DNA from: Synergistales bacterium
Lineage (GTDB): Bacteria > Synergistota > Synergistia > Synergistales > JAFGMB01
Length of the DNA stretch: 64,000 nt
Reading direction: 5' to 3'
NCBI GenBank assembly: GCA_963666205.1
Contig: OY762654.1
Coordinates: forward strand, 800,001-864,000
This document shows, piece by piece, positions 43,076-62,483 of the stretch; position 1 is the first letter of the stretch, and every line of letters starts with the position of its first letter. A program made the position numbers and the translations under genes. A model generated the notes under the pieces. It made no database searches, was not told the origin of the DNA, and saw nothing but the letters and a program-made list of their open reading frames with translations.

Positions 43076-44449
43076 TCAATGCCTTGAAAATCCGGTTTTT
43101 CTTTTCAGAAAATTACCCCTACCCATGTCGCCGATAAATTCACCTTTATAAAAGATCATTTCACCACGGGATATAGTTGCGATGACCCTACCTTGTACGA
43201 TCAGCCCTTCATAGGGAGAAAAATCTGTTTTCATATGGAGATCACTGGCATGGATGGTCCATTTTGAAGAGGGGTCAAATATAACCAGGTCCGCATCAGA
43301 ACCAATTGCAAGAATTCCCTTTTGAGGGAACAGGCCATATACTTTTGCCGCATTTTCCGACAGGATTTTTGTAAGATCCTCCAGGGATAATCTATTTTTC
43401 ATTATCCCCTCTGAAAAAATAAGGGGTAACATCGTTTCAGTTCCCGGTAACCCTTTGGGCAATCTGGAAAAGGAACCCTGCCATTTCTTCTGTTCTTTTC
43501 TATACTGGCAATGATCGGAAGCGACAAAGGATAAGGTCCCCTTTGAAATAGCATCCCACAAAGAAGCCCTGTCCTCTGTTTTTCTCAACGGGGGAGCTAT
43601 GGAATACAGATATCCATGATCTGTTTCATACAGGCTATCATCAAGAAGAAGATACTGGGGGCAAGTCTCGCCTGTTACTGATACACCCTCACGCTGGCCT
43701 CTTCGAAGTTCCTCAAGTCCCTGAGAAGAACTCACATGAACGATATGCAAATTGGATCCAGTAATTCTGCCATAGAATATGACCTGTGCGATCGATGAAG
43801 CTTCAGCTGCTGGTGGTCTGGAATACGAGAATTTTGACATTCTGGACAAGTCCTGGGGAGTCATTCTATTGAGAAGTCCTTTTATAAGGTCATCATCCTC
43901 ACAATGGACCAGGGCCAACGCTCTCATATCAGCTATCTCTCTGAAAGCATGGTATAGGACATCCGAGCCGGATCCCCTCCCCGAATCAGAGTATGTAGTA
44001 AAGAATTTAAAACTCGAAACCCCCATTTCAAGAGCTTTTCGGAATTGCCATTCATCTCCCGGCAACCAACCTGTTACTTCGGCATGAAGACCAAAATCGA
44101 TCACACTTTCACTTGCAGATTGGAGCCTGGCGTTAATATCCTCGGGAATGGTTCTATGAGGGGAAGATGAATTGGTAAAGTCTATAATTGTCGTTATTCC
44201 TCCTGCTGCTGCTGCTACTGTGCCATTATAGAAATTATCACTGGTCACAGTCTCCCCTGTTTCAAGGTCCATATGGGTGTGGGGGTCTATGATCCCGGGT
44301 AGAACATACATTCCACGTGCTTCTATTTCCTCTTTCCCTCGAAAACCGGTTCCTATAGCTGCTATTCTTTCTCCCATAACCGCAAGATCCGCTTGGATAA
44401 TGCTTCCTGATAAGTGTAGTTGCCCGTTCCTGATAACAAGGTCATACAT
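43076..44449 (-). CDS. hydA: Dihydropyrimidinase / D-hydantoinase
   Basis: DPHTH, GGITT, FKFF, VHCE, VHVS, ETCPQYL, PPLR, SDHC, GSDAD. Confidence 0.88.
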   Translation of the reverse strand: MYDLVIRNGQLHLSGSIIQADLAVMGERIAAIGTGFRGKEEIEARGMYVLPGIIDPHTHMDLETGETVTSDNFYNGTVAAAAGGITTIIDFTNSSSPHRTIPEDINARLQSASESVIDFGLHAEVTGWLPGDEWQFRKALEMGVSSFKFFTTYSDSGRGSGSDVLYHAFREIADMRALALVHCEDDDLIKGLLNRMTPQDLSRMSKFSYSRPPAAEASSIAQVIFYGRITGSNLHIVHVSSSQGLEELRRGQREGVSVTGETCPQYLLLDDSLYETDHGYLYSIAPPLRKTEDRASLWDAISKGTLSFVASDHCQYRKEQKKWQGSFSRLPKGLPGTETMLPLIFSEGIMKNRLSLEDLTKILSENAAKVYGLFPQKGILAIGSDADLVIFDPSSKWTIHASDLHMKTDFSPYEGLIVQGRVIATISRGEMIFYKGEFIGDMGRGNFLKRKTGFSRH

Positions 44450-44577
44450 TTTCCCAACCTCCATGTCTGTTCTCGAGATGTACAGATACATATTACTGGC
44501 GGGAAGAAATAAATGTAAATGATGCAAAAGGCTGACAGGTAATAAGGCGATTATACTGGAGAGGGTCTCCTGTCAAC

Positions 44578-44626
44578 AATACACAAGCCGGATCAGCTGA
44601 AAATGAGCTGATCCGGCTTGTGTATT
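44578..44626. terminator. 21-bp-arm inverted repeat after folD
   Basis: aatacacaagccggatcagct-N7-agctgatccggcttgtgtatt. Confidence 0.75.
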
Positions 44627-44645
44627 TACCGCCTGTCTAATTTAG

Positions 44646-45491
44646 TTATTGTGCTTTAAAAGCCTCGAGGGTATTGAGTAGGAGCATGGCGATGGTCATG
44701 GGTCCTATTCCCCCCGGTACAGGTGTTATCCAGGAGGCCTTTTCCTTCAGGGCCTCGAAGTCCACATCTCCCACGAGTCCCTCTTCCAGCCGGTTTATCC
44801 CCACGTCAACTATTACTGCTCCCTCTTTGACCATTGGTGCGGTGAGGAACTTTGCCTTTCCTATGGCTGTCACTATGATGTCCGCCTCTTTCGTGTAACT
44901 GGCCATGTCCTTCGTCCTGCTGTGACAGACGGTCACCGTGGCGTTCTGCGCCATGAGCATGGAGGCTACGGGCTTGCCCACTATGTTGCTCCGGCCCAGC
45001 ACAACGGCCCTTTTCCCTTCAAGTTCTATCCCATACTCCCTTAGAAGGTACATGATACCCTTGGGGGTGCACGGTTCCGTCCCCTTAAGCCCCGTAACGA
45101 GCTTTCCCATGTTTATGGGGTGGAATCCGTCCACGTCCTTTTCCGGCCTTATGGCGGCTATGATGCTGTCGCTGTCCATGTGCCGGGGAAGGGGAAGCTG
45201 CACCAGGATCCCGTCTATGCGGGGGTCGTTGTTCATCTCTTCCACAAGGGATAGGAGTTCCTCCTGGGTGGTCTCCTCGGGCAGGCGGTGTAGAATGGAG
45301 TCAAAACCTGCTGCCCTGCACGCCTTCTCCTTCTGTCCCACGTATACCCTGGATGCGGGGTTCTCTCCCACTATCACTACGGCAAGGCCGGGAACTCCCC
45401 TGCCTTCTCCCCTTAGCCTTTCCACTTCCGCCGCTATCTTCTCCCTTACCAGGGCGGCTGTTTTCTTTCCGTCAAGAAGCCGGGCTGTCAA
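44646..45491 (-). CDS. folD: Methylene-THF dehydrogenase / methenyl-THF cyclohydrolase
   Basis: YVGQK, GILVQLPLP, KDVDGFH, PCTP, GRSNIVGKP, DVGIN, PVPGGIGPMT. Confidence 0.97.
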   Translation of the reverse strand: MTARLLDGKKTAALVREKIAAEVERLRGEGRGVPGLAVVIVGENPASRVYVGQKEKACRAAGFDSILHRLPEETTQEELLSLVEEMNNDPRIDGILVQLPLPRHMDSDSIIAAIRPEKDVDGFHPINMGKLVTGLKGTEPCTPKGIMYLLREYGIELEGKRAVVLGRSNIVGKPVASMLMAQNATVTVCHSRTKDMASYTKEADIIVTAIGKAKFLTAPMVKEGAVIVDVGINRLEEGLVGDVDFEALKEKASWITPVPGGIGPMTIAMLLLNTLEAFKAQ

Positions 45492-45642
45492 TATAAAGAC
45501 ACTTCCTTTCAGTTTCCTCGTATTTCAGTTATCTCTTTCCTTATTTTCCTGGTTTCTTACTTCTTTCTCTGGTCCTTCTATTATTTTTTTGCGGTTTCCC
45601 CTGACCGCTCTTTCATGTTCCCCTCCGGTCCAGGAGGCTCCT

Positions 45643-46188
45643 TCAGCTGGTGGTTCCCCTCAGGGGTGACGCCACTTTTCCTGCTATCCTCTCTGCAAAG
45701 AGGGCATAGAGGGGTACGGTGAAGCAGAAGGATATGGCCCTCGGCGGAAGGGTGGTCCACAGGGGTATGCCGAAGAGCATCTTCAGAAAACAGGGCACCA
45801 GTACCATGGATGTGACGAAGAGGCCCGCTCCGCTGGCTATGGCCAGGCGGATAAAGGTCACCCTCTCCCTGCCCATAAGGGTCAGTACGAGGCCGGGGAT
45901 CATTCCGGTGAGGGCGGCGCTGAGGGTGAAGTGGGGCATGTAGACTCCCATGGGGTTCAGGATGAAGCCCAGTATGTCTCCAAGGGCTCCTGCCATACCT
46001 CCTGCCGCGGGTCCGAGGAAGAGCCCCGCAAATACCACGGGAAAACTTCCCAGTCCTATCCTTATCCCTTCCACTCCCCCTATGCTTATCCTCACACTGG
46101 CAAACCTCACCAGGATTATGTTAAGACCCACCAGCAGCCCCAGGGTCACCAGTCTGTGGGTGTCCATTCTTTTCATGGCTTCTTTCAT
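45643..46188 (-). CDS. folT: Folate-family ECF transporter S component
   Basis: Hydrophobic ~180 aa with GIRIG, GP..G, DILG, Y.PHFTLSAAL.G.IPG; between fhs and folD. Confidence 0.85.
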   Translation of the reverse strand: MKEAMKRMDTHRLVTLGLLVGLNIILVRFASVRISIGGVEGIRIGLGSFPVVFAGLFLGPAAGGMAGALGDILGFILNPMGVYMPHFTLSAALTGMIPGLVLTLMGRERVTFIRLAIASGAGLFVTSMVLVPCFLKMLFGIPLWTTLPPRAISFCFTVPLYALFAERIAGKVASPLRGTTS

Positions 46189-46356
46189 TGCTCCTTTGTC
46201 TTCTTTAATAAAGGAAGGGGAGATCCGCCTAAGGAGGTGTAATCCTTTGAAGGGGGGGTCGGGGGATCTCCCTGCGCAGTAATGGCTCGTTATGTTATGC
46301 TGCTGTTTCTGTTCTGTTACTGTCCGCTTTCTGCTGCTCTATGGTCCATGCTCTTC

Positions 46357-48024
46357 CTAGAAGAGACCGGAGATGTTACCTTCGTTGTCTATGTCTATCT
46401 TCAGGGCTGCGGGTTTCTTCGGCAGGCCGGGCATGGTCATTATGCTTCCCGTTATGGGTACAAGGAAACCGGCTCCTGCTGAAAGCCTCACTTCCCTCAC
46501 CGTGAGGGTGAAGCCTTCCGGCCTTCCCAGCTTGGCGGGATCATCAGATATGGAGGACTGGGTCTTGGCCATGCATATGAGAAGGTCGTCCATTCCCTGT
46601 TCGTGGATGGCCGCAAGGTCCTTCTCAGCCTTGTCCGTGTAGGTAACGGCTCCTGCTCCGTAGATCTTCTTCGCTATGGCTTCTATCTTCTCCTTTGGCG
46701 TCGCCTTGGCGTCGTACTGGTAGTGGAAGCTGTTCTCCTTCTCGCATGCCCTTACCACTTTCTCCGCAAGGTCTACGGCTCCTTCCCCGCCTCTGGCCCA
46801 TACTTCGGACAGGGATACGGTGGCTCCAAGCCTTACGCAGTGTTCCTCCACGAGCTTCAGCTCGGCTTCGCTGTCGGTGGGGAATCTGTTTATGGCCACC
46901 ACTACGGGTACTCCGAAGGAGCTCAGGTTCTCTATGTGCTTCTCAAGGTTGGGGATCCCTGCTTCAAGGGCCTTCAGGTCCTCCCTGCCAAGGTCGGTCT
47001 TCGGCATGCCTCCGTGCATCTTCAATGCCCTCACTGTGGCTACGAGAACCACTGCGCTGGGATGGAGCCCTGCCATGCGGCACTTGATGTCCAGAAACTT
47101 CTCCGCTCCAAGGTCGGCTCCGAATCCCGCTTCGGTGACGAAGTAGTCCGAGAGCTTCAGTCCGTACTTCGTTGCCTGGACGCTGTTGCATCCGTGGGCT
47201 ATGTTGGCGAAGGGGCCTCCGTGGACGAAGGCGGGCACTCCTTCAAGGGTCTGGACCAGGTTGGGCTTCAGGGCATCCTTGAGCAGAACTGCCATGGAGC
47301 CTTCGGCCTTCAGGTCCCCTGCTGTAACGGCTTCTCCGCTGTATGTATAGGCTATTACCATCCGGGACAGCCTTTCCTTCAGGTCGGCTATGCTCCCTGC
47401 AAGGCAGAGGATGGCCATCACTTCACTGGCTACGGTGATGTCAAATCCCGATTCCCTCGGTATTCCGTGGGGTTTGCCTCCAAGGCCCACTATCACGTTG
47501 CGAAGGGCCCTCTCGTTCATGTCCATGACCCGCCTCAGAACTATCTGACGGGGGTCTATGCCCAGCTCGTTACCCTGCTGGAGATGGTTGTCAAGCAGGG
47601 CTGCCAGAAGGTTGTGGGCGGTGGATACGGCGTGGATGTCGCCTGTGAAATGAAGGTTTATGTCCTCCATGGGCACCACCTGGGAGTAGCCTCCTCCGGC
47701 TGCTCCTCCCTTGACTCCGAAGCTGGGGCCGAGGCTGGGCTCACGAAGGGCTATGGATACCTTCTTTCCTATCTTTGCCAGTCCCTGGCTGAGGCCCACT
47801 GTGGTGGTGGTCTTTCCCTCTCCTGCAGGGGTGGGCGTTATGGCCGTCACCAGAATAAGCTTGCCGTCCTCGTTCCCCTTGACCCTTTCCCACAGGTCGT
47901 AGGATACCTTAGCCTTGTACCTCCCGTAGAGCTCCAGCTCCTCTTCCTTTATTCCCAACCCTTCAGCTACCTCCACTACCGGCTGCATCTTCGCTGACTG
48001 GGCGATCTCGATGTCACTTAACAT
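46357..48024 (-). CDS. fhs: Formate-tetrahydrofolate ligase
   Basis: [50 protein letters not shown]. Confidence 0.98.
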
Positions 48025-48066
48025 TCTCGGTTCCTCCTGTTCTGTTATTTACAGCTATAAAAAATA

Positions 48067-49692
48067 TTATTCGGTTGATCGGGCCGATCTTTTAAGGATC
48101 CTGCCCGGTCGAGCCTGGGTAAATCTTCCTTTCTCCACCACTGCTGATCCGTTAACAATAACGTAATGTATTCCTTCAGGGAAATGGTGTGGTTCCTGGA
48201 ATGTAGCCCTATCGATAATAGTTTCAGGATCAAAAATCACGATATCCGCCCAGAAACCCTCCTTGAGAAGGCCTCTGTCCTGAATACCCATTTTTGATGC
48301 AGGCATAGAAGTCATCTTTCTTACGGCTTCCTCGATAGAAAGGACCTTTTCATCCCTCACGTATTTTCCAAGAACTCTTGGGAAAGAACCATAGGCTCTT
48401 GGATGGGGTTTACCTCCGGAATCTGGAGAGGTTACCCATGAATCCGATATTATTGCAGAAAAAGGGCTTGCTATGACTGTTTTGACATCCTCTTCGCTCA
48501 TCGCAAAGACGACCATTGTGGCATTTCCATCTATCTCCAGAAGGAGATCCAAAAACTTTGAATAGATTTCCCCGTCATGGGGAACACAACGAAATATCTT
48601 ATTAAGAGAAAGCCCTTCATAATCAGTTCGTGAAGGACATTCTCCAATGAATATCCTGTCAATTCCAAGTTGCTTTATAAGACTGTCATTACCACCTTCA
48701 GCTCGTGCAAGGGCACAAATTATAGATTCTCTTGCATCCGGATCATTCAGTCTTTGAAGCATACTCTCTATTCCGCCTTCAAGAGCCCAGGTCGGAAGAA
48801 GGGATGTAATAGTGGTGCTTATAGCAGTATATGGATATACATCACAACTTACATCCACACCATCTTCTCTGGCCCTTGCTATCATAGCCAGGGAATCATG
48901 GACTTTCCCCCAGTTCCTGTTTGACATTGCCTTGTGATGAGATATTTCTACTGCAATACCATTTGCACGACCGATATCAATAGCCTCCTGTACTGATTCG
49001 AGAAGATCATTTCCCTCATCTCTCAGATGAGTCGCATAAATTCCACCATATTCGGTTAAAACAGAAGCAAGTTCAATTAACTCATCTTTTCGGGAATAAG
49101 TCCCAGGGGGATAGATCAGGCCCGTTGACATGCCAAATGCTCCATCCTCCATGCTCTGTTTAAGAAGAGACTTCATTTCCTCCATTTCAACCCTTGAAGG
49201 GTCGCTTCCTTTAAAACCCATGACTGCAACTTTCAAGGTTCCATGGCCGACAAGGGGCACAAGATTCAGGGCAATGCCTTTTTCAATCACTCTTTCATAA
49301 AAATCCCCAAGGCTTTTCCAGTTCCACATATAGTTATAGTGTTTAGCCAGAAATGGAGAATTGTATTTCTTGAGCTGTTCAAGTCTTTCTGGATTCACAG
49401 GAGCCATGGAAAGACCACAATTACCAACTACAGAAGTTGTCACTCCCTGCATGGTATAAGAATCACCCAGTGGAAATGCCAGAATACCCTGGTCCACATG
49501 ATTATGAAGATCGATAAAACCAGGCGATACGACAAGTTTATCCGCATCTATTTCAATTTTTCCCTGCTCATGGATCTTTCCTATTTTTGCAATCTTTTCA
49601 TCTTTTATTCCAATGTCCCTGAAAACAAAGGGGTTCCCGGTGCCGTCAACGATTTTTCCGTTCCGTATTATCAGATCATATCGTGCTTCCAT
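48067..49692 (-). CDS. N-acyl-D-amino-acid deacylase family amidohydrolase (copy 2)
   Basis: PGFIDLHNH, GNCG, STGLIYPP, THLR, SHHK, DVYPY, SD, HPRAYGSFPR. Confidence 0.9.
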   Translation of the reverse strand: MEARYDLIIRNGKIVDGTGNPFVFRDIGIKDEKIAKIGKIHEQGKIEIDADKLVVSPGFIDLHNHVDQGILAFPLGDSYTMQGVTTSVVGNCGLSMAPVNPERLEQLKKYNSPFLAKHYNYMWNWKSLGDFYERVIEKGIALNLVPLVGHGTLKVAVMGFKGSDPSRVEMEEMKSLLKQSMEDGAFGMSTGLIYPPGTYSRKDELIELASVLTEYGGIYATHLRDEGNDLLESVQEAIDIGRANGIAVEISHHKAMSNRNWGKVHDSLAMIARAREDGVDVSCDVYPYTAISTTITSLLPTWALEGGIESMLQRLNDPDARESIICALARAEGGNDSLIKQLGIDRIFIGECPSRTDYEGLSLNKIFRCVPHDGEIYSKFLDLLLEIDGNATMVVFAMSEEDVKTVIASPFSAIISDSWVTSPDSGGKPHPRAYGSFPRVLGKYVRDEKVLSIEEAVRKMTSMPASKMGIQDRGLLKEGFWADIVIFDPETIIDRATFQEPHHFPEGIHYVIVNGSAVVEKGRFTQARPGRILKRSARSTE

Positions 49693-49711
49693 AACTCTAT
49701 CCTGTTGGTCC

Positions 49712-51043
49712 TCACCATGGACCAACTATCTGATGACCCAGGGCAATTGTAGGCAGCCAGCAGGATAGGAATGGAATATAGGTTGTAAGGAGCAGGACAG
49801 GAATTCCTACAAGAATCAGGAAAAGCATCATAGGTTTGATCAATTCTCCTGCCGGCACTCCGGAAAGTCTCGATCCTACAAAAATAGACATTGCAAATGG
49901 AGGTGTCATTACTCCCAATCCTATATTAAGTATTATCATGGAACCAAGATGTACAAGATTGATATTCAGTTCCTTGGCAAGTGGAAGGATAAGAGGAACG
50001 GCAAGGATGAGGATCGGTATTCCATCAAGGAACATCCCCAGAAGAAGCAGAAAGGCATTGATCGATATGAGGATCAGGTATTTACTGTGGAAAAGACCAA
50101 GCATAAATGCTGCCAGACTCTGAGCTACACCCTGGCGTGTCAGGAACCTTGTCAGGACAGTTCCTCCACCGAGCAGTAGAGCTATCATTCCGAGAGTAAT
50201 CACTGTGCTGGTCATGGCTTTCACGAAATTCCCCAATTTCAGATCCCGGTAAATAAAGAAGCCTACTGCCATGCAATAGAATACTGCAATGGCTCCAGCT
50301 TCGTTGGGAGTACAGATACCACCATAAATTCCCACAAGAATCAGCAATGGACATCCAAGGGCCGGAAGAGCCGCCCATGTTGCTGATACAAGCTCTTTCA
50401 TTGAATCTCTGAATGTTTCTGGCATGTCCGGAACTTCCGTACTTGGAATAGTGTATTTATCAACTATAAAATAGTTAAGGATACCGTAACCTAGAGCCAG
50501 AAGAAGCCCTGGAAAAACTGTAGCGAGGAAAAGAGCGGCAACTGACTGCTGCGCTACCAGACAATATATCAAAGCAGGTACGCTCGGAGGAATAAGATAC
50601 CCCAGAAAACTTGAAGAACAGAGGACTGCCGTAGTATAGCTTTTTTTATACCCGTACTTTTCAAGTCTTGGAACCAGCAATGGAATGAGAGCCGAAATAC
50701 ATGGTACAGATGAACCTGTAAGAGCACTCATAAAAAGAGTAGCTATAATACCGACCACTATAAGACCACCCTTGACCTTACCAACAAGGGCGTACGAAAA
50801 ACGTACAATTCGATCTGCCAGACCCGCCTCAGAGATCAGAGCACCTGCAAAAACAAAAAACCCTATTGCCATTACCACCGGAGTAAACAGGGAATGGAAG
50901 AAAGTACCAGCGATGAACGACAGGGGTGCTTCAATAAGGAAGAGGCCCAGTGCTGTACTTGCAAGGAAAACCCATCCCAGGGGAAGGCCTATCATTATAA
51001 GGACAAGAAATGAGATTAGAGAAATAATGATCCCGGTTTCCAT
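49712..51043 (-). CDS. dctM: TRAP transporter large permease
   Basis: TGSS, LIPPS, TPNEA, TPPF. Confidence 0.93.
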   Translation of the reverse strand: METGIIISLISFLVLIMIGLPLGWVFLASTALGLFLIEAPLSFIAGTFFHSLFTPVVMAIGFFVFAGALISEAGLADRIVRFSYALVGKVKGGLIVVGIIATLFMSALTGSSVPCISALIPLLVPRLEKYGYKKSYTTAVLCSSSFLGYLIPPSVPALIYCLVAQQSVAALFLATVFPGLLLALGYGILNYFIVDKYTIPSTEVPDMPETFRDSMKELVSATWAALPALGCPLLILVGIYGGICTPNEAGAIAVFYCMAVGFFIYRDLKLGNFVKAMTSTVITLGMIALLLGGGTVLTRFLTRQGVAQSLAAFMLGLFHSKYLILISINAFLLLLGMFLDGIPILILAVPLILPLAKELNINLVHLGSMIILNIGLGVMTPPFAMSIFVGSRLSGVPAGELIKPMMLFLILVGIPVLLLTTYIPFLSCWLPTIALGHQIVGPW

Positions 51044-51568
51044 TTACTTATTTCCTCCTTCTATCTGTTCCCATCGCTTTTTCTGAATCTCATGAATACC
51101 GTTGAATACATGGTAAAGAAGGTGTATTGCTGAGAGAACGACAACTCCAAAAAGGATATACACCAGCCAGCTTGTGTTGAACCAGCGAACAAGAGTACCG
51201 TACTCCGGATATTTAATCGATCTTAGAAAGAATTTGTACACTGGCTGGGCAAAAACCAGTATTACGACAAGGGAAATAATATCCATTACAAGTAGATAGA
51301 CACGAAGCCCCCATGGTTTACCAGCAAATACTTTTACCTGGATCATTTCTACAGCTATATGGCCCTTGTTTGCTGCTGTAAAAGCTATAGCCAGGATATA
51401 GGAACTCACAAAAATATAGAGAGCAAGATCACCTATCCACATAACTTCAAAATGAAGCCAGTAACGGTTTAATACCTGAGCAAAAACCAGGGTTGTAGAA
51501 ACAAGCAACCCTATGGAACATATCAGGTTTTCGATCTTTGCAATTCCATTCTGGATATTTTTGAACAA
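51044..51568 (-). CDS. dctQ: TRAP transporter small permease
   Basis: Four TM segments; QVLNRY, GHIAVE; between dctP and dctM. Confidence 0.9.
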   Translation of the reverse strand: MFKNIQNGIAKIENLICSIGLLVSTTLVFAQVLNRYWLHFEVMWIGDLALYIFVSSYILAIAFTAANKGHIAVEMIQVKVFAGKPWGLRVYLLVMDIISLVVILVFAQPVYKFFLRSIKYPEYGTLVRWFNTSWLVYILFGVVVLSAIHLLYHVFNGIHEIQKKRWEQIEGGNK

Positions 51569-51780
51569 CTTTTATCACTCTCCTCGTGATGAAGGATATG
51601 GGATATTGAAGGTTTGACTTGAATTGAAGATACCGAGTCGGAAATTCATATACCGATGTGTGCTCAAATAATTACGACTTCAGTTATAACAGGACCTTAA
51701 CCTTAAATTTAATGCAACACATATACCCTGATTAAACAAAGACAGTTAAAATAAGGATCTTTCATAAATCTTTCCAGGAT

Positions 51781-51822
51781 TCCAGCCACGTATCCGGAGT
51801 TAAGTCCGGATACGTGGCTGGA
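51781..51822. terminator. 18-bp-arm inverted repeat between dctP and dctQ
   Basis: tccagccacgtatccgga-N6-tccggatacgtggctgga; no U-tract, so possibly an mRNA-stabilising hairpin. Confidence 0.6.
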
Positions 51823-51865
51823 GGTAATAGAGATTCGATCTGACGAAAATAAAAAAGGTTAAAGC

Positions 51866-52951: not shown

Positions 52952-53138
52952 ATTGAAGCCTCCTCTTCTTAAAGTGCACATTTTAGTGATGCAGACTTTT
53001 GCCAAAGATCCAACCTGAAAAACCAACAAAGAATCTCCTTCCTACCCCTCCTTTTACAGTCATATAATCAGGAAATAGTGTTGCAACTCTTGATTCCAAT
53101 ATAAAGAACATCAGTTATTAATACTCTAAAGGCTATAA

Positions 53139-54737: not shown

Positions 54738-54904
54738 GAAAAAGACCCCTTCCTCTTTGTGCCAGGATCCTGATATCACACAGGTATATCGCTTCCCTTA
54801 CATGAAGATTTTTCTCGTTACACTGCCTGGAGCGTTGCACATCAGCAATCCAGCATCCATCTTTTCTTCAAAATGTTCTTGAAGACATATCTATAAATCA
54901 GGAC

Positions 54905-54937
54905 GAGGCAGAGGTTCCTGAAAGAAACCCCTGCCTC
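54905..54937 (-). terminator. Hairpin after the PLP-enzyme gene
   Basis: gaggcag..ctgcctc imperfect stem. Confidence 0.5.
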
Positions 54938-54943
54938 ATCCAT

Positions 54944-56407
54944 TTAAAGTAATCCTGTCATCTTGTTGAATTCATTGATTTTTTCGTCGATGCTTGAAGC
55001 CATTCTGTGAATGCTACCCCAATATTCCTCTGCATCGTACCACTGGGCGTTAAGCTCATCAAGCTCTTTTCCCTGCTGTTCGATCCATGTATAGTACTTG
55101 AGATTATGAACAGTCTTTCTGTCGTAATAAGTGAGTTCCTTCATCCAGTCAGTACCGAGACCGAGAATATGCTGGTGATAGTCGACGGCAGCATCTATTT
55201 CCCTGTACTCTCCATACTCCTCTTCCATTTCCTGAAGCCTTGAACCATAGAGTTCCATGGAATCAGTAAACACAGTGAAGATAAGGTCATTCTCTGTAAG
55301 CTCATAATACTTGGCCATCTTGATGGCCATGATAACGTTGGCAGCACTGGAAATGCCCATTAACGGGAGCTGCTCCATCAGTTCCGGTGATACTCCCTTT
55401 TCCTTGAGGTAAGCCCTGCCTGCAGGTTCATTGAAAAGGCGGATCATGGCCATACTGTCTGCATCATCTACATCTATTACCATATCTGTATTCTTGACAT
55501 TGTGGATCCAGGGAACATGTTTGTCGCCTATACCCTCTATCCGATGGGCCCCAAATCCGTTATAAAGAAGGGTTGGACACTGAAGAGCCTCTCCTACTGC
55601 GATCTTGCTGGTGGGGTATAGATCTTTCATATAATCCCCAGAAGCAAGGGTCCCACCGGAACCGGATGTGAGGGTTACACCAAAGAACCTGTCCTTGGGA
55701 CCAGCTATCTGCTTGAAAACTTCATCCATGGCACTTCCAGTAACTTCATAGTGCCAGAGGTGGTTTCCAAACTCTTCGAACTGGTTGAAAGCTACCACAT
55801 TATCCCTTGTCTTTTTGAGTTCCCAGGTTTTGTCAAAGATCTCCTTTACGTTGCTCTCACTTCCCGGAGTAGCTATGACCTCTCCGGCCACTTTGGCCAG
55901 CCATTCAAAGCGTTCTTTGCTCATTCCTTCAGGAAGGATAGCGATGGACTCACATGCAAGCAACTGGGAATTATAGGCACCTCCACGACAGTAATTACCG
56001 GTGGATGGCCAGATAGCCTTCTGGGTTGTCGGATCAAACTGACCAGTTACAAGACGGGGGACAAGACATCCGAAGGTGGCACCAACCTTGTGTGCCCCAG
56101 TGGGGAACCATTTACCAACAAGAGCAACTATTCTGGCATCTACTCCTGTTATCTCTTTTGGAAGCTCTACAAAGTTAACCCCGCCGTAAAGTCCGCCTTT
56201 CTTAACAGGTTCATTTTTCCAGGTAATCCTGAAGAGGTTAAGGGAATTAACATCCCATAGGCCTACATCCTTTAACTGATCCTTGACCTTCCGGGAAATA
56301 AGATCAGGATTTTTCATCTGTTCAAAGGTGGGAATTGCAATTTTCCTTTCCCTGGCCCGCTGAACAGTCCTCTTAAGCTGTTCCTCATTAATGGTAAGAT
56401 CGATCAT
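54944..56407 (-). CDS. PLP-dependent fold-type II enzyme (cysteine-synthase-like, uncharacterised)
   Basis: FPTGAHKVGA (PLP Lys), PSTGNY, NQF, GSGGT, IEGIG. Confidence 0.82.
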   Translation of the reverse strand: MIDLTINEEQLKRTVQRARERKIAIPTFEQMKNPDLISRKVKDQLKDVGLWDVNSLNLFRITWKNEPVKKGGLYGGVNFVELPKEITGVDARIVALVGKWFPTGAHKVGATFGCLVPRLVTGQFDPTTQKAIWPSTGNYCRGGAYNSQLLACESIAILPEGMSKERFEWLAKVAGEVIATPGSESNVKEIFDKTWELKKTRDNVVAFNQFEEFGNHLWHYEVTGSAMDEVFKQIAGPKDRFFGVTLTSGSGGTLASGDYMKDLYPTSKIAVGEALQCPTLLYNGFGAHRIEGIGDKHVPWIHNVKNTDMVIDVDDADSMAMIRLFNEPAGRAYLKEKGVSPELMEQLPLMGISSAANVIMAIKMAKYYELTENDLIFTVFTDSMELYGSRLQEMEEEYGEYREIDAAVDYHQHILGLGTDWMKELTYYDRKTVHNLKYYTWIEQQGKELDELNAQWYDAEEYWGSIHRMASSIDEKINEFNKMTGLL

Positions 56408-56474
56408 TACAGCACATCTCCTTAATCAAGTATTAAATAATAGTCTCGTATATTAATTCAGGTTTTACTGATAT

Positions 56475-57731
56475 CTAATAACCGGCATACAGTGGAAATC
56501 TGCCGCATAGATCCATAACTTCGGCTCGTATCTTCGCCAGGCCAGTTTCATTCTCAATATTTACTACCGTCCGGTCTATCCAGTCTGCCAGAAGGTCCAT
56601 CTCGGGTTCCCGGAACCCCCTGGTCGTGACTGCCGGGGTTCCTACCCGGATACCGCTCGTCACAAAGGGGCTCTTCGTCTCAAATGGAACAGTATTTTTG
56701 TTCACTGTTATTCCAGCCTTGTCCAGAGCCTTCTCCAGATCCTTACCTGTAACTTCCCTGCTGGTGAGGTTGATCAGGATAAGGTGGTTATCCGTTCCCC
56801 CTGACACAAGATGGAAATCCCTCTTCAGCAATGCTTCAGCGAAGGCTTTCGCGTTCTTTACAACCTGCTCCTGGTATTCCTTGAATCCAGGCTGAAGAGC
56901 CTCCCTGAAAGCTACAGCCTTTGCCGCGATAACGTGCATCAGGGGACCTCCCTGCATACCCGGGAAAATAGCCTTATCAACAGCCTTGGCATATTCCTCC
57001 CTGCACATTATCATTCCGCCCCTGGGACCGCGCAGGGTTTTATGGGTCGTTGTTGTTACGAAATCACACCATGGAATGGGATCCTTATGGAAACCGGTGG
57101 CTATTAGCCCTGCTATATGGGCTATGTCGAACATTAAATAGGCTCCTACCTTGTCAGCTATGTCTCTGAACTTTTGTGCGTCAATCTCCCGGGGATAGGC
57201 ACTGGCACCGCAGACTATCATCTTCGGTTTGTGCTCAAGGGCCAGACGCTCCACTTCTTCAAAGTCTATGGTCTCTGTTTCATGGCTAACTCCGTAAGGT
57301 ACTATGTTGTAGAGCTGGCCCGAAAAATTGACGGGGCTGCCATGGGTGAGATGACCACCATGGGAAAGGTTCATTGCCAGTAGTGTATCCCCTGGTTTCA
57401 GTACTGAAAAATAGACGGCCATGTTTGCCTGGGAACCGGAATGGGGCTGGACATTGACATGGTCACAGCCGAAAAGCTCCTTTGCTCTGTCCCGGGCAAG
57501 ATCTTCGGCCTTATCAACTACTTCGCAGCCTCCGTAATATCTTTTGTGAGGATAGCCTTCCGCATATTTATTGGTAAGAACTGAACCCATAGCCGCCAGG
57601 ACAGCCGGGGTCACCACATTCTCCGATGCTATAAGCTCTATCCCGTGTCTTTCTCTCTCCAGTTCTTCACTGATCACTTCGAATATGGCCGGGTCGATAC
57701 TCTGGAGACACTCTCCTGCTTTACCGAACAT
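56475..57731 (-). CDS. glyA: Serine hydroxymethyltransferase
   Basis: [42 protein letters not shown]. Confidence 0.98.
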
Positions 57732-57767
57732 TTTTATTCCACCTTTCTCTTCAATTATTGATTCTCT

Positions 57768-59009
57768 CTAGTTCATTTCACCAAGTTTACGTGTAAGATC
57801 TTTCATATCGGGATCAGCCAGGATGGGAGACCCAACAGCTTTTTGGGCACTTACAATATCTTTAAGGCCATTCCCAGTTACGATAAAAGCTATTCTCTCA
57901 TCTGGTCTGATATCACCCTGGAGGGCCATTTTTTTAAAACCGGCAAATCCCGTAACGCCTGCAGGCTCTCCAAAAACTCCAGTCTCTCTTGCCAGTTCGG
58001 GCATAGCCTCAAGTATCTCCTGATCAGAAACGGTTATCATATCTCCTCCGCTTTTTCTTACAGCTCTAAGTGCTTTGGCCCAGTTCCGGGGAGAACCTAC
58101 AGAAATGCTGTCAGCAATAGTATCTGCAGAGGTAAATGTAACCCTTTCAGTTCCAGACTTCACTGCGTTGTATATGGGCGACGCCCCTTCAGCCTGAACT
58201 CCTGTAATTCTTGGAATTCTCTCTACAAGACCAAGCTGGAAGAGATCAAAAAAAGCTTTATAAACACTGCTGATAATGCATCCATCTCCGACCGAGACAA
58301 ATATCCTGTCTGGAACATCCCAGTTCAACTGTTCGGCAATTTCAATAGCACAGGTCTTCTTGCCTTCAACAAGATAGGGATTTATGGCACAGTTACGGTT
58401 ATACCATCCCCATTTCTCGATAGCTGCAGTAGCCAGGTTAAAAGCGTCTTCGTAATCTCCTTTAACCAGTATGACCTGCGCACCGTAAACAAGGAGCTGG
58501 GTCACTTTGGCCGCTGGAGCTTTTTCCGGTACAAAGATATAGGATCCAAGACCTGCACATGCAGAAAAACCTGAAAGGGAACTTGCAGCATTACCCGTTG
58601 AAGCACATGCTACAATCCGCTGGTTGAAATCAAGGGCTTTTGCCACTCCGACAGCACTTGCCCTATCCTTGAGCGATCCGGTTGGGTTTCGTCCATCGTC
58701 CTTGACATATACATTTTTTACACCATATTTTGAAGCAAGCTTGGGGCTATCGTAAAGCGGAGTCCAACCCACCTCCAGACAGGGAATATTCCTTTCATCT
58801 TTAACAGGAAGAATAGAACTGTAACGCCACAGGCTTCTTTGCTGAAGCTTTGAAAAATAATCCCTTGAAAGCTTCTTCTTATTCTGGTCATAATCATAAA
58901 GAACATCCAGCGTTCCATCCAGACCACAGGATGGACATGTATACATGACTAAATCAGGATCATATTCTTTTCCGCAAAGAACACATCGTAAAGTACTGGG
59001 AACGGCCAC
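57768..59009 (-). CDS. Threonine-synthase-like PLP enzyme with N-terminal Zn ribbon
   Basis: CxxC..CxxC; NPTGSLKDR, ASTGN, NPY..EGKKT, TGNGLKD. Confidence 0.85.
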   Translation of the reverse strand: MAVPSTLRCVLCGKEYDPDLVMYTCPSCGLDGTLDVLYDYDQNKKKLSRDYFSKLQQRSLWRYSSILPVKDERNIPCLEVGWTPLYDSPKLASKYGVKNVYVKDDGRNPTGSLKDRASAVGVAKALDFNQRIVACASTGNAASSLSGFSACAGLGSYIFVPEKAPAAKVTQLLVYGAQVILVKGDYEDAFNLATAAIEKWGWYNRNCAINPYLVEGKKTCAIEIAEQLNWDVPDRIFVSVGDGCIISSVYKAFFDLFQLGLVERIPRITGVQAEGASPIYNAVKSGTERVTFTSADTIADSISVGSPRNWAKALRAVRKSGGDMITVSDQEILEAMPELARETGVFGEPAGVTGFAGFKKMALQGDIRPDERIAFIVTGNGLKDIVSAQKAVGSPILADPDMKDLTRKLGEMN

Positions 59010-59026
59010 TGTAAATATCCTCCTGC

Positions 59027-60214
59027 CTACTCAAATACAGAACGGACTATACCGTAATAGCCCTCACAAGCTTTAACCAGCTGTTCTATTTCTATATATT
59101 CATCATCAACATGGGCTAGTGTTTCAAGGGAACCTCCGTAACCCAGGGTCGGGATTCCAGCCTTGCCTGCGTAGTAACTTCCATTAGTACAGAAATAATA
59201 ATGGGAAAGGACAGGATCCTGACCTGCAGACCTGAGGCCCTTGAGTGCAATCTGTACAAATTCATGGTCTTCAGGAAAGAGCCAGCCGGGCGCAAATCTT
59301 GTTGCTTTTATCGGCTCTCCGGTATAACACATGTCTTTACCCACTGCGAGATAGAGCCTTGTCTTCAGTTCAGGATCAGATAAAGCGACTTCATCAATTA
59401 TCTGCTGTACCTGCTGCAGGACTATCTCTTCGCTTTCCCCGACAAGCAGCCTCCTGTCAAAAGTCACTCTGCATTGATCAGGAACTACACTGGCACCCGG
59501 ATATGGTGAAGATATGATATCCGTGACCTCCAGGATGCCTTCTCCCAGAACGTCGTTCGATGCTGGAACAAATTTCTTCTCTATCTCTAAAAGGACTTTC
59601 ATCATCTTCTTGACAGCGTTAAGACCCACAGAAGGGTTTGAGGAGTGGGCAGTCTTGCCCAATGTTTCAAGAACCACCTCTGCTCTGCCCCTCTGTCCTC
59701 TTTTCAGGGTAAGATTGGAAGCCTCTCCGATTATTACAAGATCAGGCCGATATCGCTCTCCTATCAGCTCCGATGCAACACCCTCAAAACATTCCTCATG
59801 AACGGAACCGGCAACGATAATTTCACCATCAAGATCATCTCCATGATCTTCCTTCAGGTAAGCTGCTGCCTGGATCATAGCTGACAGGTTTCCCTTCATG
59901 TCTGAAGTAGCTCTGCCATATATCTTTCCGTCTACTACCTCCGCTCCAAAGGGGTCATAGTTCCATTTGGAAGGATCACTGATATCAACGTGATCCATAT
60001 GACCTTCCAGAAGGATTTTCCGGCCCCCTTTTCCAAGGATTATCCGGCCTATAACATTACCATAGGTATCTACTTCCACACTATCAAACCCCAGATCCAC
60101 CATTCTGGACCGGACGAGTTCTGCTACATTCTTTTCCTGGCCGGACAAGCTTGGCTGCTGGATCATTTTCCGGCAAAAGCAAACGAGTTGTTCCTTTCTC
60201 TCCTGTGTGATCAT
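59027..60214 (-). CDS. YgeY-family M20 metallohydrolase (intact motifs)
   Basis: GHMD, GRATSDMKG, HEE, IGE, GQRGR, TNG, AH..DE. Confidence 0.88.
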   Translation of the reverse strand: MITQERKEQLVCFCRKMIQQPSLSGQEKNVAELVRSRMVDLGFDSVEVDTYGNVIGRIILGKGGRKILLEGHMDHVDISDPSKWNYDPFGAEVVDGKIYGRATSDMKGNLSAMIQAAAYLKEDHGDDLDGEIIVAGSVHEECFEGVASELIGERYRPDLVIIGEASNLTLKRGQRGRAEVVLETLGKTAHSSNPSVGLNAVKKMMKVLLEIEKKFVPASNDVLGEGILEVTDIISSPYPGASVVPDQCRVTFDRRLLVGESEEIVLQQVQQIIDEVALSDPELKTRLYLAVGKDMCYTGEPIKATRFAPGWLFPEDHEFVQIALKGLRSAGQDPVLSHYYFCTNGSYYAGKAGIPTLGYGGSLETLAHVDDEYIEIEQLVKACEGYYGIVRSVFE

Positions 60215-60244
60215 TATGAACTCAACCCCTATGCAAAGATTTTT

Positions 60245-61438
60245 TTATTTTGACAGGACTTCCCTGGCTATACCATAGTAGCCAAGGAACCCTTTCAAGA
60301 GCTGATCAATCTCAATATACTCATCTGTAATATGGGCGAGGACTTCTCTGGATGGACCAAAAGCAATTGTCGGTATATCGGCTTCTCCTCCATAGTAGCA
60401 ACCATTGGTTCCGAACCCGGCTCTATTCGATAGTACTGGTTCAAGTCCCACATTTTCCAACCCCTGAAGAGCTGTCCTGATAAAATCATGGTCATCAGGA
60501 AAAAGCCATGCTGGAGCAAAATGCTCCCCCCTTATAGGAACTCCGGTATAACATGAATCTTCAAACCTTGAAAGCCTGACATTTACCTTCATATTCGGGG
60601 TTTCCCTCGAAGCAATTCCAATAATTTCTTTTATCTGGGCGAGAACTCCATCCCTTGTATCGTTCAATAAAAGCCTGCGATCGAAGACTGCCCTGCATCT
60701 GTCGGGAATAGCGCCAGTGTTGCGCTCCGGAAAAGAGAGAAGGTTTGTCAGCTCAAGAATGCCCTCCCCCAGAAAGTTATGATTTTGAGGAACAAAGTAC
60801 TTCTGAATGGCAGAAAGAAGGGATATCATGTGCATCGCAGCATTAATTCCATAACCCGGGTTGGCTGAGTGGGCCATTTTCCCCATGGTCTCCAGAATAA
60901 TTTCAGCTCTGCCCCTCTGCCCTCTTTCCAGCTTGAGATCTGAAGCTTCTCCGATCACCACCATGTCCGGACAATATTTTGAGGCTATAAGATGAGATGA
61001 AACTCCCTCAAAACGTTCCTGATGAACCGTTGCTGCAACAATAAGTTCACCTTCCATTTCGTCCTGGCGATCCTCCTTGAGCGATGCTCCGGCAAATATC
61101 ATGGCGGAGAGACTGCCCTTCTGATCGGACGCTCCTCTGCCATAGATTCTTCCATTTTCAAGAAATGCGCCGAAGGGATAGTAAGTCCATTCAGATGGAT
61201 CCCGCACCTCCACCTGATCCATCTGAGCTTCCATGAGGAGTGTTTTCCCGGGTCTGGGAAATTTTATTCTACCAATTACATTACCGTAATAATCCACATC
61301 AACCGAATCATAATCAAGGGAGAACATTGTTTCTCTAACGAAAGAAGCAACTTTTCTTTCATGGCCGGAAACACTGGGATATCTTATCAGGTCCTGGCAT
61401 AGTCCAATTATTTCTTCTTCTCTCTTCTGATTAAGCAT
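60245..61438 (-). CDS. YgeY-family M20 paralog with substituted metal/catalytic residues
   Basis: Same architecture as its neighbour, but AQMD and HQE replace GHMD and HEE. Confidence 0.85.
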   Translation of the reverse strand: MLNQKREEEIIGLCQDLIRYPSVSGHERKVASFVRETMFSLDYDSVDVDYYGNVIGRIKFPRPGKTLLMEAQMDQVEVRDPSEWTYYPFGAFLENGRIYGRGASDQKGSLSAMIFAGASLKEDRQDEMEGELIVAATVHQERFEGVSSHLIASKYCPDMVVIGEASDLKLERGQRGRAEIILETMGKMAHSANPGYGINAAMHMISLLSAIQKYFVPQNHNFLGEGILELTNLLSFPERNTGAIPDRCRAVFDRRLLLNDTRDGVLAQIKEIIGIASRETPNMKVNVRLSRFEDSCYTGVPIRGEHFAPAWLFPDDHDFIRTALQGLENVGLEPVLSNRAGFGTNGCYYGGEADIPTIAFGPSREVLAHITDEYIEIDQLLKGFLGYYGIAREVLSK

Positions 61439-61540
61439 TAGCTATCTCCCGTAAGATAGTGACATAATGTAAAAACCTGAACTATTAACAATTATAGATG
61501 GGTATGTATTATTTTCAATAAACATTTTCTGATATAATTG

Positions 61541-61555
61541 ATAGTAAATTTCTAA
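61541..61555. promoter_or_regulatory. LysR-type T-N11-A recognition site
   Basis: ATAG-taaattt-CTAA in the divergent ygeY/lysR intergenic region. Confidence 0.5.
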
Positions 61556-61574
61556 TGTCATGGGGGGGGTAAGC

Positions 61575-62483
61575 TTGATCACTTTTTATCAACTGGAATC
61601 TTTCTGCAAGATCGTGGAAGAAGGTTCCTTTCGCTCCGCAGCTGAAAAACTTTTTATTTCACAGCCCTCCATCAGTCAGCATGTAGCCAGCCTTGAAAAA
61701 CACTTCCAGATCCAGCTTTTTATAAGACAGGGAAGAAAAATAAGACTCACACCCGAAGGAAGGTTACTCTACACTACTGCAATTCAGATAATCGAAAAAA
61801 TCGGGACCCTGGGAGAAAGATTCAAGGATCTGAAAAACCTGAAATTTGGAGAACTCAAGATCGGATGCTCGAACTTTACCGGTTCTTACATACTCCCCCA
61901 TGCCCTGGACTTTTTCCGCCATAAATACCCTCTGATAAAGGTATCAATAATATCTGGAAGGGTCCGGGAGATACTCCAGAACTTGAATGACAATAATCTG
62001 GAACTGGTCATTCTCGGGAAAAACCTGAATTGGGCAACTGAACCTCAACTGACTTATAAATCCATAGGTATGGACGAACTGGTTTTCGTCGCAAATTCCG
62101 CCCATCCACTTGCAAACAGTACCGTCAAGGTCCGAACCCTTGAGAAAGAAACTCTTATAACCTATTCCGAAAGGAACAACCTTAATTCCTATATAAAAGA
62201 TTTCATTTTGAGATACGAACTGAGACCCACTAATATCATAGAGGTGGATGACCTGGGCATAGCTAAAAAGCTCACTCTTCAGGGTCTGGGTATAACCCTG
62301 GCCAGTAAACTGGCTGTTGCGGAAGAGATAAAAGAGGGAACTCTCAGCCTGATCGATCTGGAAGACAGGGAAAGACTGACATGGGAGATAAATGCCATTT
62401 ATCACTCCAGCAGGGGACTTACTTATGCAGGATGGGAAATGCTGAAGATCCTTGAAAAAATGGCTGGTCTCACTCTCACTTAA
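61575..62483 (+). CDS. LysR-family transcriptional regulator
   Basis: GSFRSAAEKLFISQPSISQHVASLE..LFIR..LTPEG; divergent from the ygeY cluster. TTG start 61575 or ATG 61560. Confidence 0.95.
   Translation: MITFYQLESFCKIVEEGSFRSAAEKLFISQPSISQHVASLEKHFQIQLFIRQGRKIRLTPEGRLLYTTAIQIIEKIGTLGERFKDLKNLKFGELKIGCSNFTGSYILPHALDFFRHKYPLIKVSIISGRVREILQNLNDNNLELVILGKNLNWATEPQLTYKSIGMDELVFVANSAHPLANSTVKVRTLEKETLITYSERNNLNSYIKDFILRYELRPTNIIEVDDLGIAKKLTLQGLGITLASKLAVAEEIKEGTLSLIDLEDRERLTWEINAIYHSSRGLTYAGWEMLKILEKMAGLTLT

Follow-up and report, generated by a model that had tools for sequence, protein, structure and literature searches.

A reductive uric-acid (2,8-dioxopurine, or "yanthine") pathway was described in 2025 for Escherichia coli and Clostridium sporogenes, with XdhD/XdhAC, YgfK, SsnA, HyuA, YgeW together with YqeA, YgeY and YgeX as its enzymes (PMC12507026; bioRxiv 10.1101/2025.04.24.650524; PMC12990295). 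XdhD carries out the first reduction of urate and YgfK or UacX the next, and SsnA, which the authors use as the marker of a urate pathway cluster, opens the ring to give ureidomethyl-hydantoin (PMC12507026). HyuA opens the latter to 2,3-diureidopropionate, from which YgeW takes off one ureido group, a step that UacY, a D-aminoacylase homologue of PF07969, carries out by hydrolysis instead, and YgeY the other; the known end of the pathway is the conversion of diaminopropionate to pyruvate by YgeX (PMC12507026). We report herein on a LysR-linked gene cluster of a Synergistales bacterium, located at positions 43076 to 62483 of a 64,000-nucleotide stretch of contig OY762654.1 (assembly GCA_963666205.1), which most likely corresponds to the lower half of this pathway. 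The whole stretch is referred to below as the window.

Several variants of purine breakdown are relevant to this locus. In Clostridioides difficile, UacX (PydA-like) and UacY (UniProt Q181U6) replace YgfK and YgeW/YqeA, and in Enterococcus formate is a co-substrate of urate breakdown (PMC12507026). The clostridial "xanthinase" fermentation of purines (the Rabinowitz pathway) ends in glycine, formimino- or formyl-tetrahydrofolate (THF) and ATP formed via Fhs (PMC12507026, PMC12990295).

The window spans C1:800001-864000 of the source genome (complete, 2.95 Mb; coordinates with the prefix C1 are those of this genome, all others those of the window). Gene families were assigned by Pfam and NCBIfam profile searches of the window's open reading frames (ORFs), and the curated cut-offs are quoted. 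A first-pass annotation, made from the letters alone, had described 14 co-oriented genes of named families divergent from a LysR gene, and both the ORFs and the profiles agree with it: 14 minus-strand ORFs run from 61438 down to 43076, with the LysR ORF opposite at 61560-62483. The order from LysR is M20a-M20b-ThrC-like-GlyA-PLP487-Amh546-DctP-DctQ-DctM-Amh552-Fhs-FolT-FolD-hydantoinase. The flanking genes FeoB, RlmN and HflK are unrelated to the cluster, as are the glycogen and signalling genes beyond them. As the annotation had also noted, YgeW, SsnA, Xdh and diaminopropionate ammonia-lyase are absent from the window; no ornithine carbamoyltransferase (OTCase), xanthine dehydrogenase (XDH), SsnA or DpaL gene was found by Pfam or NCBIfam within its 64 kb. 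Its link to the purine clusters that contain YgeY and a hydantoinase was borne out by NF009555 and TIGR02033 scores above the cut-offs.

We consider the window most likely to hold the lower half of the urate pathway, because XDH, SsnA-like and UacX-like genes lie about 100 kb away. More fully, the cluster would be a modular Synergistota version of the lower half of the anaerobic reductive uric-acid pathway, with its own importer, an ending that uses pyridoxal phosphate (PLP) enzymes and a link to one-carbon metabolism, a reading to which we give a probability of roughly 0.6. The physiological substrate here is probably a purine-derived diureido acid. The earlier outline of TRAP import, ring opening, decarbamoylation, PLP steps and GlyA-FolD-Fhs routing is retained, most likely as part of the urate pathway rather than of an unrelated one. 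Likewise, the system had been proposed as undescribed; the final steps, the importer and the one-carbon link are new, but the system as a whole is not. A literature search that had the supplements of both primary papers outside its scope found no description of this pathway ending, of the link to serine hydroxymethyltransferase (SHMT), of a stand-alone module linked to a tripartite ATP-independent periplasmic (TRAP) transporter or of a degenerate M20 protein. The terms "threonine synthase", "cysteine synthase", "serine hydroxymethyltransferase", "TRAP", "formate" and "variant" do not occur in the Liu preprint (bioRxiv 10.1101/2025.04.24.650524).

As in E. coli and C. sporogenes, the ring would be opened first and a C3 skeleton then stripped of two ureido groups, and a HyuA-family hydantoinase and a YgeY-family M20 protein occur in the window, with XDH and SsnA-like genes elsewhere. 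Unlike these organisms, the source genome has no YgeW, YgeX or YgfK-like match, its two halves are 100 kb apart, the window adds a TRAP importer, SHMT, Fhs, FolD and FolT, and a ThrC-like enzyme, PLP487 and a degenerate M20 protein stand in the position of YgeX. The C. difficile variant would be similar in its use of a PF07969 D-aminoacylase homologue for hydrolytic ureido removal and in having UacX, to which a DHO_dh-family gene beside the SsnA-like gene here is similar; it differs in retaining YgeX, and the source genome has two PF07969 genes, one with a Cys-to-Asp change, that are likened to UacY by family only. The proposed formation of glycine and a folate-bound one-carbon unit, of ATP by formate-THF ligase and the use of glycine reductase recall the Rabinowitz pathway, but no formiminotransferase was seen in the window, and the one-carbon unit would come from C3 of serine rather than from formiminoglycine. 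The hydantoinase/carbamoylase route to D-amino acids and the D-aminoacylases (PDB 1M7J, 3GIP/3GIQ) share with the cluster a D-hydantoinase, decarbamoylation by an M20 protein or amidohydrolase and the D-aminoacylase fold; unlike them, the enzymes of the window belong to a regulated catabolic cluster that also encodes PLP and folate enzymes.

Hydrolases and probable upper-pathway genes

The hydantoinase (Hyd; 43076..44527, minus strand, as are all genes of the cluster except LysR) is of the HyuA-type D-hydantoinase/dihydropyrimidinase class, scoring 409 bits on TIGR02033 (cut-off 393), which we take to be one family with IPR011778. From its family and context, it would open ureidomethyl-hydantoin. 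M20b (59027..60214) is a predicted YgeY-type ureido hydrolase; it scores 466 bits on NF009555 (cut-off 321) and retains the di-metal and base residues (H, D, D, E, E, E), so that it passes for a member of the YgeY family on both counts. It would hydrolyse the second of the two ureido groups, giving 2,3-diaminopropionate (DAP) or a close relative.

The first gene of the array, M20a (60245..61438), also belongs to the YgeY family by profile (NF009555, 386 bits), but two catalytic positions are changed: in the alignment, Gln stands at the positions of H72 and E140 of M20b. We take H72 to be the first metal ligand and E140 the general base, from what is known of DapE. Both Gln residues are kept in all 19 M20a-type sequences, and His and Glu in all 46 other M20 neighbours. 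Because Gln replaces the first His and the general-base Glu, M20a is a family member by sequence and yet probably not a hydrolase; it is probably a conserved pseudo-hydrolase that heads the operon, and thus a candidate pseudo-enzyme or partner subunit.

Two further genes, called deacylases in the first-pass annotation, keep their assignment to PF07969 and can be placed, by matches to 1M7J and 3GIP, in the D-aminoacylase family to which UacY belongs. Amh546 (53139..54779, 546 aa; 1M7J 266 bits, 3GIP 242 bits) retains the HxH motif, two further His and the Asp, and has Asp instead of Cys, as do all 10 of its orthologues. Amh552 (48067..49725, 552 aa; 1M7J 298 bits, 3GIP 296 bits) retains every canonical D-aminoacylase residue, including the Cys. 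The roles of the HxH, the metal-bridging Cys, the two His and the catalytic Asp are those we take from the literature on 1M7J. Amh546, and perhaps also Amh552, would hydrolyse one ureido group in place of YgeW and carbamate kinase, as family and context suggest.

According to the first-pass annotation, its variant pathway would fall if the canonical genes lay elsewhere and accounted for the pathway. This holds for one half of the set: xdh and an ssnA-like gene are present about 100 kb away, but neither ygeW nor dpaL was found in the genome. The upper purine module (C1:957000-971500) contains two XDH sets, an SsnA-like gene and a UacX-like gene. A YedE selenium transporter lies upstream, followed by FAD and Fe-S subunits, an XdhA-like protein and a second, pucD-like XDH that has a fused Fe-S/FAD subunit; C1:961-971.5 kb encodes Mo subunits of 780 and 768 aa and, next to the SsnA-like gene, a DHO_dh UacX-like protein of 306 aa, and the module also encodes a metallo-beta-lactamase-fold protein of 301 aa. 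The SsnA-like gene (C1:964639-965934), which is flanked by XDH genes and a UacX-like gene, scores 377 bits on NF005540 (cut-off 444) and 344 bits on TIGR03314 (cut-off 455.5). This upper half would feed the module of the window from urate.

For the other half, profile searches of the source genome gave 43 bits as the best YgeW match and 51 bits as the best TIGR03528 (DpaL/YgeX) match (cut-off 532), and a tblastn search of it with a YgfK-like query gave no match. An OTCase/carbamate kinase pair at C1:1911625-1913605 was considered as a source of YgeW activity and dropped, with 43 bits on the YgeW model. The absence of ygeW can be explained because Amh546 and Amh552 belong to the family of UacY, which replaces YgeW in C. 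difficile (PMC12507026).

PLP enzymes and their distribution

Two PLP enzymes occupy the place of YgeX. The ThrC-like enzyme (57768..59009) scores 256 bits on PALP, 316 on NF006050 (cut-off 303) and 236 on TIGR00260 (cut-off 167), and PDB threonine synthases match it with up to 234 bits in a PDB sequence search. The canonical thrC sits beside thrB and an aspartate kinase gene at C1:434131-435333, and for this reason the ThrC-like enzyme of the cluster is regarded as an extra paralogue rather than the housekeeping enzyme. It is one of three such paralogues in the source genome, and in the loci examined it is always found within purine-type clusters.

The second enzyme, PLP487 (54944..56407), is a 487-aa protein of the CysK fold that scores 45 bits on PALP and falls under every curated cut-off. 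By profile it is neither a cysteine synthase (TIGR01139, 90 bits; cut-off 351) nor a cystathionine beta-synthase (CBS; TIGR01137, 72 bits; cut-off 510), and what it has in common with CysK and CBS is limited to the fold and the motifs around the PLP lysine, the Asn loop and the Gly loop. Across 46 sequences from several phyla its mean column identity is 73%; Lys107, which in the alignment occupies the position of the cysteine synthase PLP lysine, is invariant, and a Ser-Thr-Gly-Asn loop, a Gly-rich loop and Ser353 are conserved. The AlphaFold model (pLDDT 89.7) is closest to beta-cyanoalanine synthase, CysK, CBS and lanthionine synthase (TM-scores to the target of 0.75-0.85 at 21-26% identity); as far as the model goes, its nearest folds are thus those of enzymes that add a nucleophile onto an aminoacrylate (beta-replacement), not those of ammonia-lyases. 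An ESM Atlas search with PLP487 returned only "putative cysteine synthase / PLP enzyme" clusters, and its nearest named relatives are from Synergistaceae metagenome-assembled genomes.

At least 595 relatives of PLP487 occur in a species-level genome collection, from which the best 80 loci, spread over many phyla, were kept; all ORFs of their neighbourhoods were clustered and one representative per cluster was annotated. The ThrC-like gene adjoins PLP487 in 54 of the 80. Other neighbours are OTCase-type carbamoyltransferases (25 loci), M20 proteins (20), carbamate-kinase-type AA_kinase proteins (16), XDH Mo subunits (14) and FAD subunits (13), parts of nucleoside-type ATP-binding cassette (ABC) transporters (12-16), hydantoinases (12 besides the window) and YgfK-like proteins (5). 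A conserved ORF of about 183 aa without a Pfam match directly follows PLP487 in 10 loci, including L063:11566-12117. There is also a second, sugar-like context, with PGI in nine loci, a xylose-isomerase-like TIM barrel in seven, and PfkB and DeoR in three each. In L045-L047, L056-L060 and others (Christensenellales/Oscillospiraceae), PLP487 relatives of about 66% identity occur without a ThrC-like gene, beside PGI-like, PfkB, TIM-barrel, GNAT and DeoR genes. The substrate range of the PLP487 family may accordingly be broader.

One sample of 201 Synergistota genomes, with the resulting lists collated by hand, was searched for PLP487, for SsnA-like proteins (E <=1e-40), for DpaL (TIGR03528, E <=1e-40) and for SHMT (E <=1e-60), which were found in 92, 80, 47 and 135 genomes, respectively. 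Among the 80 SsnA-like carriers, 48 have PLP487 only, 19 have DpaL only, six have both and seven have neither; in many DpaL carriers, DpaL adjoins the SsnA-like gene. Such near-complementarity is as expected if PLP487, with its partners, can take the place of DpaL.

The first-pass annotation had asked whether the gene neighbourhood is conserved, and we find that it is. In 20 Synergistota loci, one from each of 20 other genomes (about 20 kb around PLP487, hand-picked for long contigs and diverse families), the core LysR<-M20a-(M20b)-ThrC-like-(GlyA)-PLP487 recurs, more than by chance: LysR lies divergent upstream in 15 and 16 begin with an M20a orthologue, while the ThrC-like gene is present in 17 and TRAP genes in 13. 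Twelve of the clusters include GlyA, which immediately precedes PLP487 in all of these but L120, where it is found upstream, and Hyd orthologues (47-53% identity) close the cluster in eight. The modules downstream are mutually exclusive, an OTCase being present in 11 loci, an Amh546 orthologue (56-79% identity, as in the window) in seven, and both in none; the OTCase (YgeW-like) version also includes an M20 protein of the canonical kind, an ABC transporter of the Bmp/PnrA type and Hyd. In L119 and L120, XDH, SsnA-like and UacX-like genes are inside the same cluster, and there is no TRAP system.

A proposed serine route, putative import and competing explanations

In the scheme we propose, the module of LysR, M20a, the ThrC-like enzyme, SHMT and PLP487 would replace the DAP ammonia-lyase YgeX. 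The ThrC-like enzyme and PLP487, as enzymes of the beta-replacement type, would convert the C3 diamine to L-serine rather than pyruvate, a step proposed because SHMT lies within the module and fhs/folD at its end. The argument for serine draws on the beta-replacement or water-adding type of the PLP enzymes, on the association of SHMT with them and not with DpaL, and on the presence of two GrdA genes and no GcvP. SHMT would then split serine into glycine and methylene-THF, FolD and Fhs would yield NAD(P)H, formate and ATP, and glycine would pass to glycine reductase. By our own reasoning, this route restores, on paper, the reducing power used in urate reduction. We hold the serine part tentatively, and would sooner expect it to prove wrong than right. 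It is somewhat doubtful, further, that the ThrC-like enzyme and PLP487, with the degenerate M20 in Synergistota, form a new enzyme system that turns DAP or albizziin into L-serine by beta-replacement with water, and that its TRAP module feeds bacteria lacking urate-ring chemistry.

The TRAP transporter (49712..53029) comprises DctP (51866-53029; PF03480), DctQ (51044-51568; PF04290) and DctM (49712-51043; PF06808). DctP orthologues (61-79%) with TRAP genes adjoin the Amh546 orthologue in five of the seven loci that have one. The system would import an anionic ureido intermediate, for example 2,3-diureidopropionate or albizziin, and the module could therefore also act alone on compounds from other purine degraders. 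Among the 92 PLP487 carriers, 38 have no SsnA-like match, including all sampled genomes of three families; in five of these (94-99% complete), the best match to an SsnA model is 128-178 bits, and their clusters (L106-L109 and L114) still hold a TRAP system or hydrolases. These carriers suggest that an anionic intermediate, for instance diureidopropionate or albizziin, is imported, but they fit equally well with an unrelated ureido or acyl amino acid.

The cluster might have nothing to do with urate and serve by itself to break down an N-carbamoyl or N-acyl D-amino acid, or a hydantoin acid, of external origin (plant albizziin, N-carbamoyl-D-serine or a peptidoglycan-derived D-amino-acid derivative), with TRAP import, deacylation and PLP conversion. 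The TRAP genes in 13 of the 20 loci, the 38 carriers without an SsnA-like gene, the 100 kb between the XDH genes and the cluster, and a paralogous module at C1:609-616 kb are consistent with this view. On the other hand, PLP487 and the ThrC-like gene are found among XDH, SsnA-like, UacX-like, OTCase and carbamate kinase genes in L119, L120 and many loci of other phyla; their distribution in SsnA-like carriers is nearly complementary to that of DpaL (48 against 19, with six shared), and the hydrolases of the cluster are the set of the urate pathway (PMC12507026). We regard such a pathway, which comes close to the reading of the first-pass annotation, as unlikely, and it would overlap with the urate reading if the imported compound were a urate-derived ureido acid.

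The paralogous module (C1:609500-616330) consists of PucR, DctP/Q/M, a D-aminoacylase homologue and alanine racemase, with 69% identity in DctM and 55% in DctP. Its genes suggest that an N-acyl or N-carbamoyl D-amino acid is taken up, deacylated and racemised. In a genome of another genus (L111), a PucR gene and a DctP of this type adjoin the main cluster.

GlyA, the SHMT of the cluster (56475..57731; PF00464 567 bits, NF000586 655 bits), bears on a second alternative. With GlyA coordinates taken from the best 150 matches listed, at least 42 of the 92 carriers have GlyA directly beside PLP487, at a distance of under 150 bp. SHMT is present in 90 of the 92 carriers versus 45 of the 109 non-carriers, though one genus supplies 35 of the 66 genomes without an SHMT match, many of which are 97-100% complete. 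The two carriers that lack SHMT (93% and 85% complete) both have DpaL. GlyA is near DpaL in none of the 21 DpaL carriers with GlyA coordinates among the matches listed; in one genome with both PLP487 and DpaL, GlyA adjoins PLP487. The source genome has two GrdA selenoprotein genes, and no GcvP was found in it. A specialised SHMT paralogue was considered and dropped, as the same GlyA clade occurs in genomes without PLP487. Elsewhere in the source genome, a second SHMT paralogue (49% identical to GlyA of the cluster) directly follows another M20 peptidase (C1:2222243-2224688), and this M20-SHMT pair is followed by Ppnp nucleoside phosphorylase and RidA genes.

If the one-carbon genes were instead assimilatory, of the reductive-glycine type, formate and glycine would be joined into serine, and the ThrC-like enzyme and/or PLP487 would deaminate serine (and DAP) to pyruvate, the PLP pair being an analogue of YgeX or of serine dehydratase. 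Fhs, FolD and GlyA with fold-type II PLP enzymes match such a route, formate is a co-substrate of urate breakdown in Enterococcus (PMC12507026), and outside Synergistota the PLP pair occurs without a nearby SHMT, as expected for a pyruvate product. We nevertheless judge this improbable: the modelled fold of PLP487 is closest to beta-replacement enzymes rather than ammonia-lyases, the two copies of GrdA provide a glycine sink, SHMT is never near DpaL-type clusters among the coordinates listed, though these would profit too, and the route would cost a fermenter ATP.

The remaining alternative concerns the integrity of the array. The LysR-family regulator (61560..62483, plus strand; PF00126, PF03466; NF040786 173 bits, under the cut-off of 250) is separated from the operon by a divergent promoter region (61439..61559) assigned by consensus matches only, in which the top sigma-70-like site is on the minus strand (61518-61491, TTGAAA-16-TATAAT, 11/12 consensus match) and a plus-strand site matches at 61485-61512. 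A terminator-like hairpin (54901..54941, minus strand; 19-pair stem with 10 G-C pairs) starts at the stop codon of PLP487 and marks a module boundary. In a genome of the same genus (G135; 94-96% protein identity), nucleotide similarity of 91.6% extends from LysR through the PLP487 stop (54944) and then ends, and the downstream half is of the OTCase version. Because this similarity ceases at the PLP487 stop codon, where the hairpin also lies, the array appears modular and probably comprises at least two transcription units. Further along, the Amh552 gene overlaps dctM by 14 nt.

RNA-library contigs from two marine-sediment studies map on the cluster at >=95% identity and bridge ThrC-like/GlyA, GlyA/PLP487 and Amh546/DctP/DctQ/DctM, with DNA carry-over possible. 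They give neither expression levels nor transcript ends, and their depth and uncovered parts are not interpretable; one contig that stops 27 nt before the hairpin hints, weakly at best, at a separate transcript.

The fhs-folT-folD cassette (44655..48038; fhs 46357-48024, 915 bits for Fhs; folT 45643-46188, encoding a FolT-family S component of an energy-coupling factor transporter; folD 44646-45491; Pfam/NCBIfam) starts 14 nt ahead of the fhs ATG and ends 9 nt ahead of the folD stop. A second, inverted copy of its 3384 bp, 99.47% identical, lies at C1:1116665-1120047 between IclR regulator/panB genes and an amino-acid permease gene. With a gene G+C content of 56-58% against 44.5% for the genome, the cassette looks laterally acquired and later duplicated, judging from its composition and its copies. 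In G135 the first 42 nt of the fhs cassette follow Hyd at a contig end; from these and the cassette of the window, it follows that both same-genus genomes have the cassette joined to the cluster, in positions that differ. Fhs and FolD close the cluster in L021, L109, L118 and L124, and FolD alone in L107 and L114. Just beyond the duplicated cassette, the folD-Hyd spacer holds a perfect palindrome (44578-44626), which may be a terminator or a recombination scar; it gave the sole Rfam match of the window at E <=0.1, to a microRNA model on both strands, which is taken as chance. No Rfam family reached the gathering score in the window, and no THF, ZTP or glycine riboswitch was found there.

That the 14 genes are three or four units (the LysR/M20a to PLP487 operon, an Amh-TRAP-Amh uptake module, a recently inserted fhs-folT-folD and the hydantoinase) joined by recombination, with an accidental one-carbon link, as the hairpin, the breakpoint relative to G135 and the duplicated, 57% G+C cassette might indicate, is very improbable, given that the same kinds of module recur together in many genera in varied order, that fhs cassettes are joined to the cluster in both same-genus genomes and fhs/folD close it in four other loci, and that GlyA is inside the conserved operon in at least 42 genomes.

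Several points weigh against the urate reading or parts of it. The assignments of the substrate, of the product of the PLP pair and of the direction of one-carbon flux are all deduced from sequence, and related genomes are not independent, so that the profile counts overstate the support. Upstream, the SsnA-like protein falls below both curated cut-offs, and the upper genes are 100 kb off. Among the hydrolases, Amh546 carries Asp at the position of the bridging Cys, and the tie of Amh546 and Amh552 to UacY is at the family level only. The reading does not account for the need for two PLP enzymes plus a degenerate M20. For the importer, the best match of DctP in a PDB sequence search is an isethionate-binding protein at 98 bits, too weak for a ligand to be assigned, and TRAP binding proteins are known mostly for carboxylates. 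The hairpin and the recombination breakpoint split the array into halves, and transcription of all 14 genes as one unit is improbable. The fhs-folT-folD block was duplicated recently and differs from the genome in its G+C content, which looks foreign, and FolT was found in no other of the cluster loci examined. The clade of the in-cluster GlyA also occurs in genomes without PLP487, so that GlyA probably serves as the main SHMT rather than as a dedicated paralogue. Moreover, only four of the 80 cross-phylum loci have GlyA, all from Synergistaceae or Acetomicrobium, and none of the 76 others has it within the fetched flank; the serine route may be lineage-specific or simply wrong.

Implications for anaerobic purine breakdown

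The window offers the first contextual clue to the product of the alternative ending, namely serine, or glycine plus a folate-bound one-carbon unit. If the urate reading with its serine ending is true, anaerobic urate fermentation could, by way of SHMT, FolD, Fhs and glycine reductase, cover its own need for reducing power and gain extra ATP. The TRAP-linked module would then let bacteria without urate-ring chemistry use the ureido intermediates of other purine degraders. The 38 carriers without a ring-opening enzyme point to a trade in intermediates between microbes, which is of relevance to purine mineralisation in sediments and guts.

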